DNA from: Octopus vulgaris
Taxonomy: Eukaryota
Reading direction: 5' to 3'
NCBI GenBank assembly: GCA_951406725.2
Contig: OX597826.1
Coordinates: 83,762,001-83,826,000 of the forward strand
Length of the DNA: 64,000 nucleotides
Shown here: positions 13,141-56,142 of the stretch, in pieces
Numbering within the stretch: the stretch's first letter is position 1
How the letters are laid out: each line of letters opens with the position of its first letter
Program-made: the position numbers and the translations under genes
Notes under the pieces: model-generated
The model's input: the letters and a program-made list of their open reading frames with translations, nothing else
The model's database searches: none
Told to the model about the DNA's origin: nothing

Positions 13141-13462
13141 ACATTATTTACATTATTTACATTTGACAGATATTTGTCCCACGAACATATGGTGTAGTGG
13201 TTAAGAGCATGGGCTACTAACTCCAAGATTCTGAGTTCAATTCCAGGCAGTGACCTTAATAATAATAATAATAATAACATTGAAAAATACCTTAGGAATG
13301 AGAACCCAGGTTTGAAATTTCCCCAAGACACCTGATTAAAGCTGGAGGGTATATCAGCTGAAACGTTGTGTTAATAACAAACAAGATGAGGACAAACATC
13401 CATCAAATATAAATAATGTAAATAATGTCCATAATTCCTCATCTCTTAAATAAAGAACTGTA
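13141..13462 (+). mobile_element. tRNA-headed hammerhead SINE with 39-bp inverted 5' segment and 34-nt 3' extension
   Basis: Inverted tail piece at 13141-13179. A box tggtgtagtgg and B box gagttcaattcc, then (AAT)n. Hammerhead core at 13327-13372 (CTGATTA variant). Tail (atgtaaata)n plus extension at 13429-13462. Confidence 0.82.
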
Positions 13463-13477: not shown

Positions 13478-14445
13478 CATCACCATTATCGTTTAATGTC
13501 TGCTTTCCATGCTGGCATGGGTTGAACGGTTTGACTGAGGATTGGTGAGCCAGATGGCTGGACCAGACTCCAATCTGATCTGGCAGAGTTTCTACAGCTG
13601 GATGCCACCCTTCCTAATGCCAACCACTCCAAGAATGTAGAGGGTGCTTTTCCGTGCCACCAGCACAAGGGCCAGTCAGGCAGTACTGGCAACAGCCACG
13701 CTCAAATGGTATTTTTTATGTGCCACCTGGACAGGAGCCAGTCCAGCGGAACTGGCAATGACCTCGCTCAAATATTTTTCACGTGCTACAGGCACAAGTG
13801 CCAGTAAGGTGACACTGGTAATGACCACGCTTGAATGGTGCCCTTTTACATGCCACCTGTACGGAAGCGTCAACTGCTCTGGTAATGATCATGTTCGGAT
13901 GGTGCTCTTAGCACTCCACTAGCACGGATGCCAGTCAAGCAGTGCTGTCATCGAATTTTGTTTTCACTTGCCTCAACAGGTCTTCGTAAGCAGAGTTTAG
14001 TGTCCAATGAAGGAAAGGTACGCATAAGTGGGCTGGTTACGCTCCTGGCATAGGCCACGGGTTATGGTCTCACTTGGCTTGCCAGGTCTTCTCAAGCACA
14101 GCATATTTCCAAAAGTCTTGGTCACTACTCATTGCCTCGGTGAGGCCTAATGTTCGAAGGTCGTGCTTCACCACCTCATCCCAGGTCTTCCTGGGTCTTC
14201 TTCTTCCACAGGTTCCCTTAACTGCTAGGATGTGGCACTTTTTCACGCAGCTATCCTCATCCATTCTCGCCACATGACCATACCAGCACAGTCGTCTTTC
14301 TTGCACACCACATCTGATGCTTTTTAACTCCAACTTTTCTCTCAAGGTACTTACACTCTGTCGAGTATGCACACTGACATTACTCATCCAGTGGAGCCTG
14401 ATCTGGCTTCATTCCTTGCAAACTTACGTATGTCCTCAGCAGTCA
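13478..14445 (-). mobile_element. RTE-clade LINE, 5'-truncated (ORF C-terminus and 3' UTR)
   Basis: ORF 14070-14387 reads ...RRLCWYGHVARMDEDSCVKK...RRRPRKTWDEVVKHDL..., a typical RTE C-terminus. 3' UTR has internal tandem repeats and a (GAT)-type tail. Confidence 0.88.
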
Positions 14446-15692
14446 CGGCAAAAATGAATGGCAAAAATTATCTTTGGTGGAATTTGAACTCAGAACACAA
14501 AAGACAGGTGAAATGCCGCTGTTTTGCTCAACAATGCAAACAGTTGTTCTGCCAAACTGGAAGAGGCTTCATATTGCTGCAACAAAGAACAAGCCATCCA
14601 TGCTTACAAAAGGAATAAGAACATGTGGCACCAGAATGTGCAAGGCATGTGTGTGTCTGTATATTCTGTGAGACTCCTCTGCATTGAAACCGTCTTCGTA
14701 TTTTTTGTTCTTGCTCCAAACAACAGGCAAAACAGACTAAAAAAATAAATAAGAGAAAGTTAGAAAATGTAAAAATATTCAAAAGCAGAGGGGGCAGGGT
14801 AAGAGCAAGGGGTGCAGAGTACCCCACCTAGATTAAATGGTTTGAGAAGCAAACTAAGAACAACAAAGTCAAAGCTAGACTGTTTTTTTGAAAAGCTAAC
14901 TCACTGAGACTAACCACTGAACCTAACGTTCATAATTAAGACATCAATTATGAGTGAAAGCAGGAATAAACAGGAACGGCAGCTGCGTGTTTAGCGATTG
15001 ATGATATAAAATAACAGCAATGAAACAGTAATTTCATCTGCTGCAGGTTGGGGAAGGAAACCTCCTTTACATTGTTGACTGAACTGCTAGAAATAGCAGT
15101 CAAATCTCCTTTAAATCACATCATCATTATCATTTAAGTGTGTTTTCTATGCTGGCATGGGTTGGACGGTTTGACAGGATCTGGTAATTCAGAAGACTGC
15201 CAGGCTCTACTGTCTCCTCTGGAATGGCTTCTATGGCTGGATGCCCTTCCTAAAGCCAACTGGGTGCCATTTATGTGGCACCAGCATTTGTGGGGGTCAC
15301 TTAGTAACTTACAGACAAGACCCATAGACTGAAGGGAGGAGGGAGTATTGACGGGCAGAAATAAGTAAATTGCCATAGAGAAGAAATATGGCTGTTTCAG
15401 AGAGAGAGAGAGAGAGAGAAGGAAAGAGGGGGAAGGAAGGAGAGAGAGAGATAAGACAGTGAAGCTCTGATGGGGTGTACATCCATGATACAGATGGATG
15501 GAGATGGAGAGGGTGAGTGTGGGGGGGGGGTTGCAAAATTGTGAAAGGAAAGTGTGAGATGGAAGGGGGTATGTGGGGAATAGGTAGAGGTAGTGAGAGG
15601 GGTACAGCTTTGTATTTAAGAGATGAAGAATTATGGACATTATTTACATTATTTACATTTGACAGATATTTGTCCTCATCTTGTTTGTTGTT

Positions 15693-15738
15693 AACACAAC
15701 GTTTCGGCTGATATATCCTCCAGCCTTCATCAGGTGTC
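15693..15738 (-). ncRNA. Minimal type-I hammerhead ribozyme motif, intact core, palindromic loopless stem III
   Basis: Minus strand reads gacac-CTGATGA-a-ggctg(gaggatatat)cagcc-GAAAC-GTT-gtgtt. Stem I gacac/gtgtt, 5-bp stem II, AACGTT palindrome. Confidence 0.8.
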
Positions 15739-15802
15739 TTGGGGAAATTTCAAACCTGGGTCCTCATTCCTAAGGTATTTTTGGATGTTGTTGTTGTTGT
15801 TG

Positions 15803-15843
<41 letters not shown>

Positions 15844-16062
15844 GTTCAGGTCACTGCCTGGAATTGAACTCGGAATCTTGGAGTTAGTAGCCCATGCTCT
15901 TAACCACTGCGCCATATGCCCAGGCATATGGCATAGTGGTTAAGAGCGTGAGTTACTAACCCCAAGATTCCAAGTTTGATTCTAGGCAATGACCTGAACA
16001 ATAATAACAACAACATCCAAAAATACCTTGGGAATGAGAGCCCAGGTTCGAAATTTCCCCAA

Positions 16063-16108
16063 GACACCTGATGAAGGCTGGAGGGTAGATCAGCCAAAAC
16101 GTTGTGTT
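16063..16108 (+). ncRNA. Hammerhead ribozyme motif with G12A core mutation (likely inactive)
   Basis: gacac-CTGATGA-a-ggctg(gagggtagat)cagcc-AAAAC-GTT-gtgtt. Confidence 0.7.
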
Positions 16109-17776
16109 AACAACAAACAAGATGAGGACAAATATCCGTCAAATGTAAATAATGTAAATAATGTAGTGAGAGGGGTGTTAGGAGAATACATTGTGGTGGG
16201 AGGAAGAGAGTCAACAGGTACATATTGTAATGTGCAGGTAAGTTCATGAGGGAGAGTGGAAGATAGAGTGGAGGGGAATAGAGTGGGTGGTGAGCACGGA
16301 TAGGGAAGGGGGTGTTGGGAAAAGGGGATGTAAAGAAAAAGTTTGTCAGGGACAGATTGTGTGCAGGGGTGGAAAGCATGGCCATAAAGGACATTCAATT
16401 ATGGCCTTAATAGGGTCTCCTTAAGCCCATCAAATGACCACCTGTTGCAGTTCTTTGTCCTCTATTCTGTAAGATTCAGCATCTGAAGATCATCTTTTAA
16501 AAAAAGGAACCCATTAGATACAAAATATCAGGATTAAAACAGAGTGGTCACTTCTGGAATGGCTTTTGATTAGCTTCAACTCCACTTCATTGAAGTTAAC
16601 TTGGATCTAAACAGCAAAATTCTCTTTATCAACCAGCCAAGACGACTCTACGCTAGAAATAGCAGTAAAATCTCCCTCATATCACAATCTCCTATCTTAA
16701 AAAATGTGCACAGTTGATGATGAAGTTTTACACGAAACAGAAGCGTTCCAGCTTGAACAGTCTGCAGCATAAGAAGTGCTCTGAGCAACAGCTAAACCAA
16801 TCATCGTCTGCAGGACTCCATTAAACTTCTTTTGATATCGTTAATTATTCCCGTGTGACAAGATACTTGACAGCAAACGTTTTGTTGTGCAGCCAATTCA
16901 GAGAATTATTCACAGATTTTTATCACATGATATCAAACTTTCAAAATGATATATGACAACAACTTTCTATGATATCGCATTGTTTTAGTTTATATTTTAT
17001 ATCAAAATTGCTAAACAACAACATTATTGGTTTCCATTTTCTGATGGCTCAGTTACTGGTTCTCCACCTTTCTGAGGATAAGGGTGACAGGATAACGCCA
17101 TGCCTGTGCAACTTGAGACATAAACCACAGAGAAATTTGCAGAGAGGAGTCTTAGCTTTGTCTTTCACATGTAGACTTCTCAACCACACAGCTATGCTCT
17201 CCATGCCAGGTTTATCTGAATCTTGTCTCTTTAGGATGAACAACAATGTTGAGTTTGTTGAGGATTTGGTCACAGCGGAACCTGATTATTTTGTGTTCTC
17301 TCAATACTATCATCATCATCATCATCATCATCCTTTAACATCCATGTTCCAGGCTAGCATGGGTCAGAGGGTTTGATTGGACCCAATGGCTCTAAGGACT
17401 GCATCAGGCTTCAATGTCTTTAGCATGGCTTCTATAGCTGGATGCCCTTTCTAAGACCAACCACTCACCAGCATGGACTGGGCGGTGTTTTCATAAACCC
17501 TAGTGGTAGGGCATGTCAGCTTTATGCTGGGGGATGAGGGGTTAAGATATGAGGGAAGGGGGAAAAGGCAGAGCAGGTTCTTGTAGGAAGAGTTGCAGGA
17601 TTACTCAGAAAAGGGAAGGAAAGAATGATCAGTGGGAGTTGCAAAGAGATAGTTGAGATGAGGTGTCCAGGTGGCCCCCATCAAAGCACAAGGGAAGAAG
17701 TAGGTGGGTGTGGAGAGGCAGTGAAGCATGTCACAGTCATCCAATGCATCTGATTCTGTCATGGTGGTGGTGGTGG

Positions 17777-21439: not shown

Positions 21440-22400
21440 CTAATCATGCTCATATATAATTAAATGCTAAGCTTCTGGAAAGTTTTACAAACAGTTCCAG
21501 TGATGGATTGGATCTGTTGTCTTTGAATTAGTTTTCTCCTTTCTAGTTTTGAGAAGCCTAATTTCTCAAGATTGGTATTTAGGCAGTGTATTACATATCC
21601 CAGTGCCCTAATAATTACAGATATAAACCTGGACCTGTAATCTGGATAGAGTAACTGCAGATTTCTCAAATAGTTCAGCATAGGTGTTCTCTTTTTCACT
21701 GATCTTCAGCTTTATGTTAATATCCATTGGGCAGCTAATTTCCGCAACTGTACGCAGTTTCTCTTCTATATCCCTAATCATTATATCAGGTATGTTGTGC
21801 TTACATTTTATTGAGGTCTTCACTGATACATTCCAACAGCACCCCTTTTTATTATAAGTGGCTGTGGCTTCTGTCATATTGTGGGCTTTTATTTCATTGT
21901 CCTCGGGATTATCCTTCCGACGGATTTCATTATAGAGTGTCTTAGCTACAACATCATGTCTCATCGGTAGATATAACTATGATGACATTTTCAGACAACT
22001 TCTTATGATGTGGGTGATATCTTTAGTGTGAACTCCACAAATTTGCATTGGTTGTCACATTTTACTGTTTTTCCTGCATCTCTATCCCTTTTGTACATCA
22101 GGTACTTGGTTGATATTTCCTGTTCCTGAATTGCAAATGTATACCCTTCAAAGTGGGAGGTAGTAATCTAGCTATTCGTCCATTATAAACTGCTTTGATG
22201 ATCGATGTTACTATCATCTCGGAGCTTTCTACTCACATATCCATGCATAGTCTTCTGCTCATATAAGCTCATCCTTTCATCTAATGATACTTTGCGGTAG
22301 TGTTGTGCGACTTCTTTGGGCATGCATTCTAGGTTATCAGACAAAGAGCATTGCTCAAGGAGCTGCCGTCCAAGTCTTATGATGTTATCAGCCTCAGGTA
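21440..22400 (-). mobile_element. R4/Dong-like non-LTR retrotransposon fragment (CCHC knuckle and restriction-like endonuclease), decayed
   Basis: Minus-strand translation with frameshifts and stops: FEGYTFAIQEQEISTKY...C..CGVHTKDITHIIRSC...RHDVVAKTLY...KHNIPDIMI...VAEISCP...KISEKENTY. Confidence 0.82.
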
Positions 22401-54063: not shown

Positions 54064-54468
54064 AGGTATGAATGTGTGTGTATGTATATGTATGCGTATG
54101 TATGTGTGTGTTCATGTCCATATGTATGTGTGTGTGTGCGTGCATATGTGTGTGCATGTGTGTGTGCATATGTGTGTGTGCATATATGTATGTGTGCATT
54201 TGTATGTGTGTGTGTGTGCGTGTGTGTGTGTGTATGTGTGTGTACGTATATATGTGTGTACATATTTATGTGTGTGTACGTATGTATGTGTGTATGTATG
54301 TGTTTAAGTATGCATGTGTGTGTGTGTGTGCATCATTCAGTGAAAGCAAGAAAGACACACAGAAAAGAACATTACTTACTCACACACACACAGAGACACA
54401 CCTCCACCCACACACACACACACACACAGTCCTAGAATTGGGAAGCCAGGAAAGCAAAGCAACGTTAC

Positions 54469-55771
54469 CTGCATAGCTTTTACGTGGTTTCATCCTCTCT
54501 GTAATCTTAACCTCGATGATCAGGTTAGTGTGAGACATCTGGTAATGTTTGGCTTCATCCAAGAAGTCCCGACACTCAAAACTTTTCTTTAAAAGGTCCT
54601 CAGTTTCAACACAATCCATAAGGTAACTCACCGGTATAAGGGGCAGTTTGACATGTGCAAGCAGTTTTGGCAAATAACAACGCCGTTTCATTAAGTCTTG
54701 TTTAACCCATTTCATTACACCCTCATAAACACGAATTTCAGAAGGTACATTAAGGTTCGGTGAACTGACAATGATATCGATGACTTTGTATGGCATGTTG
54801 CAGAACTCCTCTTGGTCAACTACCTCAAGGAAATGTTCCAATATGTATTCATCTGTTACTTTGACCAATTCTGTACAGCCATGCTGCTCAGCAAAGTTTC
54901 TGACACCGACACAATTTGTTGGATGCAAATGGTTCTGCATAAATTTGCAGCAGGCTTGTGCAACTGTTTCCATTTGCAAAATGGAAGATGCATATAGAAG
55001 TTGTTGTACATTGTCCACAGTGAGTGTAACTTTAGAGGTGTATGCAAATGTTATGAGGGCTTGAAGACAATGCTCATCTAGATCGTGTATCGTCAGGACA
55101 CCCTGCTTGCTCTCTGCCATGTCTGATGTAAACATACCTTTGAAATAGTTACTGACACATGCAAGAACAACCCGATGGCACCATATCGACTTCTTGCCAA
55201 CTCGAATCTCCAAGTCACATAATATCTTTCGATTGTAGAAATCCAAAAGAGCCTTGAAGCCCTCCTGGCAGTGGTTTGAAGCCTCGAATACGATTTCAGA
55301 AGCTTCATTGGAACTTTTGGAATCGATTGATGCTGACGATGAAGATGATACTGATGTTTGTGGGTTTGTAGACATTTTGGTGGCAGCAGAGACTGAAGAA
55401 CTACAGCTAGTTGTAGTGAGTGTAGAGATGGTGGTGGTGGTGCTGGTGGTGGTGGTAGTGGTGGTACTTGTTGTGATAGCACTGCTTGGTGTACTGTTGT
55501 TGATACTGATGCAGATACTGCTGCTGATGCTGACGTTGTTATTACTGCTGCTGTTGCTACTGGTATTGTTGCTGCTACTACTGCTGCTACTACAGCTGCT
55601 GGCAGTGCAGCCACTGGAAATGGTCACAGCTGAAGTAGTTGGCTGGGTAACTGGCCACACACAGGGACGACTTGATAAATAATTTTTTCGATTCGGCACG
55701 GGTGGTATTGGAGGCACTTTTGGTGCTGGCAAGCTATCCTTCCGTCTTGGAAGCGGAGGCACCTCAGACAT
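54469..55771 (-). CDS. KLHL8: Kelch-like protein 8, first coding exon (Pro-rich and Ser/Thr low-complexity N-terminus, BTB and BACK domains)
   Basis: ORF contains BTB (LCDLEIRVGKKSIWCHRVVLACVSNYFKGMFTSDMAES) and BACK (NCVGVRNFAEQHGC...SEIRVYEGVMKWVK) motifs. In-frame TAG lies 5 codons upstream of the ATG. Pyrimidine-rich acceptor ...tttttag at 55836-55835. Donor GCAG|GTAACG at 54469/54468 (phase 1). Confidence 0.93.
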
Positions 55772-56142
55772 GCTAAAGAAATTCTAAAGAATCAAATGAC
55801 GTCAGAAGAGTGGATCAAGCTCCAAGCCAGAAGCCTAAAAATAGAAACAAGAAAAGAGACGCATTAATAATATAACCAAAATGTAGAATTTTAGAAGGAA
55901 GTTAAGCAACAAAAGTATAGAACTATAAAGTTTATAAAGCTATAATTAATAAGATCAGTGACGAAGTTCTAGAACTGGAGCAGGACTAAAGATTCTGAAG
56001 TGTTTAGTTATGTCCCTTTACCTTCTGAGTTCATCTGTTGTCTGAGTCAACTTTGCTTCTCTGGTGTTGATAAAATAATGTAGTAGATGAAATAAAGCAT
56101 TTAAATACTCAATAAATTGTCAATTATTAAGCTGCTTCTTTT

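Follow-up and report, generated by a model that had tools for sequence, protein, structure and literature searches.

Autonomous retrotransposons are taken to be RNA polymerase II (Pol II) transcripts, and short interspersed nuclear elements (SINEs) to be non-coding RNA polymerase III (Pol III) parasites of long interspersed nuclear elements (LINEs). Penelope-like elements (PLEs) of the endonuclease-bearing (EN+) Penelope/Poseidon type, such as Poseidon PAc of the anole (PMC11167929) and Pen2a of rotifers (PMC3846280; see also PMC8557442), have, in the accessible text of these papers, one open reading frame (ORF) for a reverse transcriptase (RT) with a C-terminal GIY-YIG/CCHH endonuclease; a pseudo-long terminal repeat (pLTR) that overlaps the ORF start and carries a minimal hammerhead; partial tandem copies; an inverted 5′ copy; a tail of 30-40 nt at one end; and a short target-site duplication (TSD). 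Here we describe an insertion at 15590-16176 of a 64,000-nt window of the Octopus vulgaris genome (contig OX597826.1, positions 83,762,001 to 83,826,000; 2.8 Gb in 227 contigs were searched), all coordinates being those of the window. We consider it rather probable that this locus is a solo-pLTR insertion of a Penelope/Poseidon-type element whose pLTR opens with a transfer RNA (tRNA)-derived type 2 Pol III promoter. Unlike the elements as described in those papers, the octopus pLTR starts with a tRNA-derived head bearing A and B boxes, the ORF avoids runs of four or more T (T4), and solo pLTRs make up ~90% of units; no intron was noticed in the octopus element, no search having been aimed at introns.

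To judge from sequence, the unit at this locus is almost certainly the pLTR of an autonomous PLE. Of 94 heads complete at the 5′ end, some 11 are preceded by one common sequence, the end of a PLE ORF, with RT motifs, a GIY-YIG/CCHH domain and a stop codon ~30 nt before the head; at the other side, in the 20 loci sampled at the 5′ part of the ORF, the extension or part of it leads into the ORF. The element thus runs head, (AAT)n linker, ATG, hammerhead, tail, extension, the rest of a ~2.3-kb ORF, stop, ~30 nt, and pLTR again, with hammerhead and extension inside the first ~50 codons. Among eight sampled loci, two (L373, L375) are pLTR-ORF-pLTR copies and two (L372, L374) are partial tandems, the other four being partial. 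In one copy (L289), an ATG lying 27 nt ahead of the ribozyme core starts a frame that stays open across the ribozyme, the 9-nt repeats and the extension and into the ORF; L375 has a 227-codon open frame across the stretch where pLTR and ORF start overlap; and the N-terminus of the open frame is homologous to that of a full-length PLE relative (31% identity, E 9e-26).

The encoded protein agrees with this assignment. RT motifs are present in natural copies (Pfam RVT_1, E 1.4e-10), and the model of a 63%-identical relative, P0001 (predicted local distance difference test, pLDDT, 94), has TERT as its top Foldseek hit (E 1.3e-10); a single-sequence model of the family's own C-terminal piece (pLDDT 37) was not usable. 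Copies carry the C-terminal endonuclease motif VYSIPCSCGRLYKGET..R..EH..H, with two Cys between GIY and YIG (CCHH), and the residues Y, C, C, Y, R, H, H, H and E are conserved across 75 relatives; the family ORF did not reach the Pfam GIY-YIG threshold, and one relative gave a weak match. The CX2-5CxxC linker finger is absent from copies and relatives and occurs in a separate 781-aa (amino-acid) family; because the linker zinc finger is missing, we place the element in Penelope/Poseidon by the criteria set out in the accessible part of PMC8557442.

That 781-aa, Neptune-like PLE, found by way of Pfam GIY-YIG, was considered as a partner of the unit and ruled out by its different hammerhead (U3-A8 core) and by the lack of any DNA match to the unit. 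As a family (L091-L099, e.g. G000:C17:42761500-42769000) it is younger, with many intact RT+GIY-YIG frames that include the linker zinc finger, an additional ORF (up to 479 aa) upstream, its U3-A8-core hammerhead in the pLTR, and 3′ ends that enter (TA)n. A decayed ORF of a further PLE-like type, with no match to the 781-aa protein, lies beside one copy of our family (L006:700-1440). Within the family itself, L272-L279 are internally deleted copies in which the first 200-265 nt of the ORF stand between two pLTRs, with a break near nt 233 in three loci; these are perhaps a non-autonomous subfamily. The spacer after the parent's stop codon, 22 nt before the head (L373:830-800), repeats the head's 5′ end in inverted, degenerate form, as if the head itself had been gained through a PLE-type fold-back event.

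At the locus, a direct repeat (GTAGTGAGAGGGGT), identical at 15590-15603 and 16163-16176, brackets a left unit read from 15921 to 15604 on the minus strand and a right unit read from 15923 to 16162 on the plus strand. The inverted arms match over 168 nt at 94% identity (15637-15804/15997-16164) and over a second block of 91 nt at 86% (15830-15920/15923-16013). The TSD edges share at most 3 nt (GTA) and 1 nt (A) with the element's own continuation, so the true TSD is 10-14 bp long. The features are as follows.

15590-15603, plus strand: left TSD, 14 bp as read, 10-14 bp allowing for overlap with the element.
15604-15638, minus strand: 35-nt PLE "tail" extension of the left arm; its bases are codons in the parent, continuing into the ORF.
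15639-15692, minus strand: 3′ part of the left pLTR, with 9-nt (AATGTAAAT) repeats that are frame-neutral; putative first reverse-transcription start region.
15693-15738, minus strand: minimal type I hammerhead of the left arm, core intact, from motif reading, fold, alignment and covariation.
15738-15734/15697-15693, minus strand: stem I of this hammerhead, with CUGAUGA at 15733-15727, then an extra A.
15725-15720/15711-15706, minus strand: its stem II, followed by GAAA and a palindromic AACGUU.
Between 15698 and 15697, minus strand: its predicted cut.
15765-15767, minus strand: in-frame ATG of the parent ORF in the left arm, with a stop at codon 6 in this copy (compare L289).
15787-15845, minus strand: (AAT/AAC)n linker of the left arm, variable in length and a frequent site of later insertions.
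15846-15921, minus strand: tRNA-derived head of the left arm, A box 15914-15904, B box 15871-15860.
15921-15923, no strand: point where the two heads meet, a variant of the GCCC-AC-GGGC palindrome that the parent has between ORF and head.
15923-15997, plus strand: tRNA-derived head of the right arm, B box degraded.
16034-16036, plus strand: in-frame ATG of the right arm, the frame staying open up to the arm end.
16063-16108, plus strand: hammerhead of the right arm, predicted inactive, its core damaged by G12->A at 16096 (reads GCCAAAAC).
16109-16162, plus strand: 3′ part of the right pLTR, without extension.
16163-16176, plus strand: right TSD.
13141-13461, plus strand: second insertion of the family in the window, a 39-nt inverted tail fragment (13141-13179, minus strand) fused to a whole extension-bearing unit (13183-13461) with a mutated hammerhead; no TSD was seen around it.

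The sequence-only reading of this stretch had described two head-to-head units that arrived in one event between 14-bp repeats, a hammerhead at 15738-15693, and an extension of about 34 nt on the left unit only, all of which hold, the extension measuring 35 nt; its claim of a hammerhead core in each unit stands for the left arm and fails for the damaged right one. Two short direct repeats (35 nt and 19 nt, 89%) also flank the locus (15086-15230/16547-16686) and are probably remnants of other common repeats. Elsewhere in the window, decayed LINE-like coding remnants (14070-14408 and 21608-21976, both minus strand) and a large exon of a BTB/BACK Kelch-like protein (54380-55783, minus strand) were read by eye.

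The family is large and mostly solo. A 21-mer from the ribozyme occurs exactly 7194 times in the genome (reversed control, 0) and is carried exactly by 44 of 135 unselected arms, which gives a corrected total of ~22,000 units; a 21-mer from the ORF end occurs 739 times, or ~2,500 after correction, so that about nine in ten units lack an ORF end and solo units outnumber ORF-linked ones ~9:1. We tabulated the architecture of 126 loci (28 selected by body, 29 by head and 29 by extension, and 20+20 pattern-listed; self hits excluded) and found 80 head-to-head, 40 single, 5 complex and 1 tail-to-tail. The first pattern-listed set (L133-L152) was chosen with close pairs skipped and is biased against pairs; the second (L153-L172), consecutive and blind to architecture, has 7 head-to-head, 10 single, 2 complex and 1 tail-to-tail, the 450-nt clustering limit counting some ORF-bearing inverted insertions (L157, L164) as monomers. 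Half of the consecutive loci looked monomeric within that limit. Close pairs among the first 100 matches listed were head-to-head in nine cases and tandem in one.

The head-to-head loci share a consistent asymmetry. Where both 3′ ends are readable (64 loci), the extension is on one arm in 60, on neither in 4 and on both in 0, and it is on exactly one arm in 39 of 43 when the extension-selected set is left out; the truncated arm can be either arm of the pair. TSDs were found in 38 of the 64 head-to-head loci (31/47 and 7/17) versus 5 of 270 flank-swapped controls, with a median of 12 bp (range 8-20, n=38). Arm 3′ ends form two peaks ~35 nt apart (146 and 132 of 315 body alignments); among solo copies, no common sequence was found downstream of the extension except other repeats. 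An inverted pair with a one-sided tail is a PLE signature in the accessible text of PMC8557442 and PMC3846280, and the one-armed extension together with the two peaks fits two internal RT start sites with both strands cleaved and extended, as the consulted part of PMC11167929 describes. The (AAT)n linker, for its part, has been invaded repeatedly (L003, L010, L017, L161, L168) by retroelements whose 3′ ends enter AAT repeats, which splits head from body.

We assigned the hammerhead and the tRNA head by reading motifs, by alignment and from covariation across families. In the predicted fold, both stem I and the 6-bp stem II form, but its z-score is only -1.5. The unit has the traits given for minimal PLE hammerheads in the accessible text of PMC4209133: core boxes, an extra nucleotide after A9, G10.1-C11.1, a long helix II, a short helix I and a palindromic 15.2-16.2. 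Helix II covaries across nine PLE ribozymes, with double changes in five of six pairs. The full set of 11 core bases survives in 70 of 139 copies, and there is no excess conservation of the core among copies (0.94 vs 0.93 for its neighbors), as expected of dead copies, so the ribozyme is not refuted. Neither a hammerhead nor a tRNA family was called by Rfam here or at five other loci, its matches being hairpin artefacts, and ARAGORN called no tRNA. A head-to-head pair makes no hammerhead dimer in cis because its ribozymes lie on opposite strands; a dimer would form from the two pLTRs of one full-length RNA or in trans, or the process would be protein-assisted. For the anole element, the consulted part of PMC11167929 describes a protein-assisted hammerhead whose cleavage is dispensable for insertion. 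The minimal, dimer-type ribozyme of the sequence-only reading is upheld by its traits and by covariation; the Rfam check which that reading had proposed came back negative.

The head has the makings of a promoter. The majority sequence of 129 alignments, with head-selected loci dropped, matches the consensus for both boxes, A at tRNA positions 8-18 and B at 51-62, which bears out the proposed Pol III-type head; among 11 tRNA genes of the genome, a sample without the tRNA-Ile first suggested, it is closest to tRNA-Arg (z 8.1 and 7.1), then to tRNA-Ala (7.0), and 49 of 75 columns are identical to a tRNA-Arg gene (z 8.1). Of 82 arms that were not head-selected, 48 have their 5′ ends, read as local-alignment ends, at -20 to +10 of the tRNA start and 22 at +11 to +60, while the remaining 12 extend further into the ORF with scattered ends; DNA contig depth rises ~2.8-fold at the bin that contains the head start. 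From this sequence evidence, the head is likely a working Pol III promoter of the short copies. Separately, seven tRNA-Cys-like genes, two with an altered anticodon, are clustered within 3 kb at L246:138-2854.

Runs of at least four T terminate Pol III transcription, and the ORF is nearly free of them. The 2619-nt column majority has no sense-strand T4+ run. In natural in-frame segments of 64 family loci the observed/expected ratio is 26/121=0.21, against 372/253=1.47 in homologous ORFs of other animals (78 loci) and 124/60.5=2.05 in other PLE families of the genome (26 loci), after removal of 18 duplicate or segmental loci and of segments <150 nt. The deficit extends to codon and amino-acid usage: the TTT share of Phe codons is 0.24, versus 0.46 in homologues and 0.43 in other PLE families, TTC being favored; TTT is preceded by T in 9 of 127 cases versus 177 of 623; and Phe itself is scarcer (2.9 per 100 codons versus 4.6 and 5.2). 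The T-ending shares of Asn, Asp and Cys are not low. None of 34 homologous ORF segments of similar T content is T4-free (Poisson P ~0.001). These counts suggest, with fair probability, that Pol III also copies the full ORF.

Several observations weigh against a Pol III-driven element. Because the family's copies go back to a small number of masters, the T4 signal amounts to nearly a single 2.3-kb observation; shuffles of the majority sequence give P 0.05 (dinucleotide and codon) and 0.15 (trinucleotide), the codon shuffles being rough as the column majority retains the frame copy's frameshifts and small gaps; T4 is absent, too, from 2 of 59 homologous loci whose T content is lower (18-19%); and runs of G4 are likewise scarce, with none in the majority, 0.21 in copies and, in the two control sets, 0.57 and 0.09. 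The two T4-free homologues, L291 and L292, are from other animals, and no A/B box was found in the short flanks available for them. A hairpin of -13.4 kcal/mol across the ORF/head junction could stall RT and is a rival cause of the 5′ pile-up. In three mRNA sequencing (mRNA-seq) runs from the same species, both orientations are equal, depth tracks copy number, 79-83% of reads continue into unlike flanks, and there are no start peaks and no sign of a discrete transcript, in libraries of a kind that misses short Pol III RNAs. An A/B box before the hammerhead was found in 0 of 11 homologous loci with a minimal hammerhead after the ORF (27 scanned), a weak blank because the scan missed 3 of 5 positive cases. 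Finally, no unbroken ORF was seen among the copies examined, whose divergence is 4-5% at non-CpG sites, and the characterized fly Penelope has a LINE-like internal promoter in the accessible text of PMC2377424.

These points can be arranged in other ways. Pol III RNAs are uncapped and normally untranslated, which favors a division of labor in which Pol III makes only short pLTR RNAs and the full-length element arises from Pol II RNAs, the lack of T4 having another cause or being due to chance. Such an arrangement accounts equally for the 5′ pile-up and the 9:1 solo excess, and the borderline shuffle support speaks for it too; but the T4 avoidance is specific, touching Phe codons and their neighbors, and is missing from both control sets, and one copy (L280/L371) starts at the head and continues into the ORF, so we regard the division as unlikely. 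We doubt still more that the element is an ordinary Pol II PLE with an inert tRNA-like piece in its 3′ untranslated region, its 5′ truncations piling up where RT stalls or folds back at the junction hairpin. The hairpin is there, short fold-back copies of the head occur at many junctions, as noted for rotifer PLEs in the consulted text of PMC3846280, and mRNA-seq gave no transcript ends; against this, both promoter boxes match the consensus in the majority sequence, the whole sense strand avoids T4, and the pile-up sits at the expected Pol III start.

The sequence-only reading preferred a tRNA-SINE that uses PLE machinery. As weighed here, this SINE would be independent and would rely on another element, a PLE with the same hammerhead and tail, which either captured it later or has no more than the 3′ end in common with it. 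The ~9:1 excess of solo units speaks for such a SINE, and solo repeats show less CpG decay than ORF-linked ones (0.17-0.18 vs 0.26-0.28, head-selected loci excluded, P 0.001-0.006; in the strictest subset, P 0.06-0.08), so solos may have kept amplifying alone. However, the entire unit, including head, linker, hammerhead and tail, is the pLTR at both ends of the autonomous element; the 97 solo arms agree with the 46 ORF-linked ones in majority base wherever the two were compared, with no fixed diagnostic difference, those at head positions 4-17 having been set aside as alignment-end bias; non-CpG divergence is equal in the two; and 26 of 29 head-selected copies lead into the same body, the other three being interrupted with no alternative tail in common. 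This model is largely refuted, and we hold it very improbable. The search for an autonomous PLE whose terminal repeat matches the unit, which that reading had called for, succeeded, and the PLE machinery that it invoked is upheld; a LINE origin of the tail, which it had named as a refutation, is not what we find, the 3′ part being the 5′ end of the PLE ORF.

We favor, with some reservation, a Pol III-driven PLE from which internally primed reverse transcription sheds SINE-like solo repeats. In our proposal, Pol III would start ~6 nt before tRNA position +1, read through a whole ORF purged of T4+ terminators, and stop at the first T-run of the flank. The RT-endonuclease would nick both strands ~12 bp apart, and two cDNAs would be primed internally, at sites separated by ~35 nt, in the manner demonstrated in vitro with the anole element (PMC11167929); this pair of sites would explain why one arm has the extension and the other does not. 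Priming at the 5′-proximal copy of the site, or on a solo-pLTR transcript, would run off the RNA 5′ end after 250-300 nt and yield a SINE-like unit, and the two cDNAs would join via the GCCC-AC-GGGC palindrome at their 3′ ends. Intact solo units would keep promoter and priming sites and could seed more copies, and for this reason the element may be said to make its own SINE. The protein could be translated either from the uncapped RNA of Pol III or from less common Pol II read-through transcripts, and hammerhead cleavage, by dimer or protein-assisted, would remove head and start codon and may switch the RNA between uses. The fullest form of this proposal, an autonomous coding retrotransposon that takes its template from Pol III through a captured tRNA promoter, has stripped its ORF of terminators at the codon and amino-acid level, and sheds its own terminal repeat as a SINE, we judge evenly poised between true and false.

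The short form invites comparison with tRNA-derived SINEs, including octopus OK, OR1 and OR2, which are alike in their tRNA head with A and B boxes, length of ~250-300 nt, high copy number and absence of an internal terminator. Unlike them, the octopus unit ends in the start of a PLE ORF and not in a LINE 3′ end, inserts as inverted pairs, and belongs to its own autonomous partner; by its sequence it seems to work like a SINE in the short form and to fail SINE membership on partner and independence. The OR families are, we presume, tRNA-Arg-related, and the head of our unit is Arg-like too, so the short form may already have a name and be catalogued as a SINE. OR1 is described as a CORE-SINE in the accessible text of PMC4824008. 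The Schistosoma Sm-alpha/Sj-alpha repeats (PMC6765202) likewise place a hammerhead after a Pol III-type promoter; they are tandem, SINE-like repeats with an active ribozyme and no autonomous parent stated in the consulted text, whereas the octopus unit has a minimal ribozyme, inverted pairs and a known parent. Metazoan non-LTR (long terminal repeat) retrozymes (PMC7761336; bioRxiv 10.64898/2026.07.22.740005) are also non-coding hammerhead repeats from PLE pLTRs, and form head-to-tail arrays that yield circular RNA, with no tRNA head described in the accessible text; octopus units are dispersed head-to-head pairs. Cassandra, Helenus and Ajax (PMC10886601) also carry a small-RNA-derived Pol III-type sequence within a terminal repeat, and as far as that paper's accessible text describes them are non-autonomous LTR elements, whereas the octopus element is a PLE that encodes its own protein. 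In our literature comparison, whose sources did not include Repbase, Dfam or the octopus SINE work of Ohshima and Okada (1994), neither a PLE with a tRNA/Pol III pLTR nor a PLE-mobilized tRNA SINE turned up, and a term search of the available supplement of PMC13282606 found no mention of hammerheads.

We suggest that this element unites a coding retrotransposon and a SINE, and would offer a simple route to the birth of SINEs outside the LINE world. Its insertions, with a tail on one arm and either arm truncated, are thousands of natural products on which two-site internal priming in PLEs could be tested. The element also raises the questions of how protein is made from an uncapped Pol III RNA, or brought to it, and of what a hammerhead does within the first codons of an ORF. 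Avoidance of T4 would be a cheap screen for other Pol III-driven coding elements, and PLE ends may account for part of what is filed as "unclassified SINE" in such genomes.

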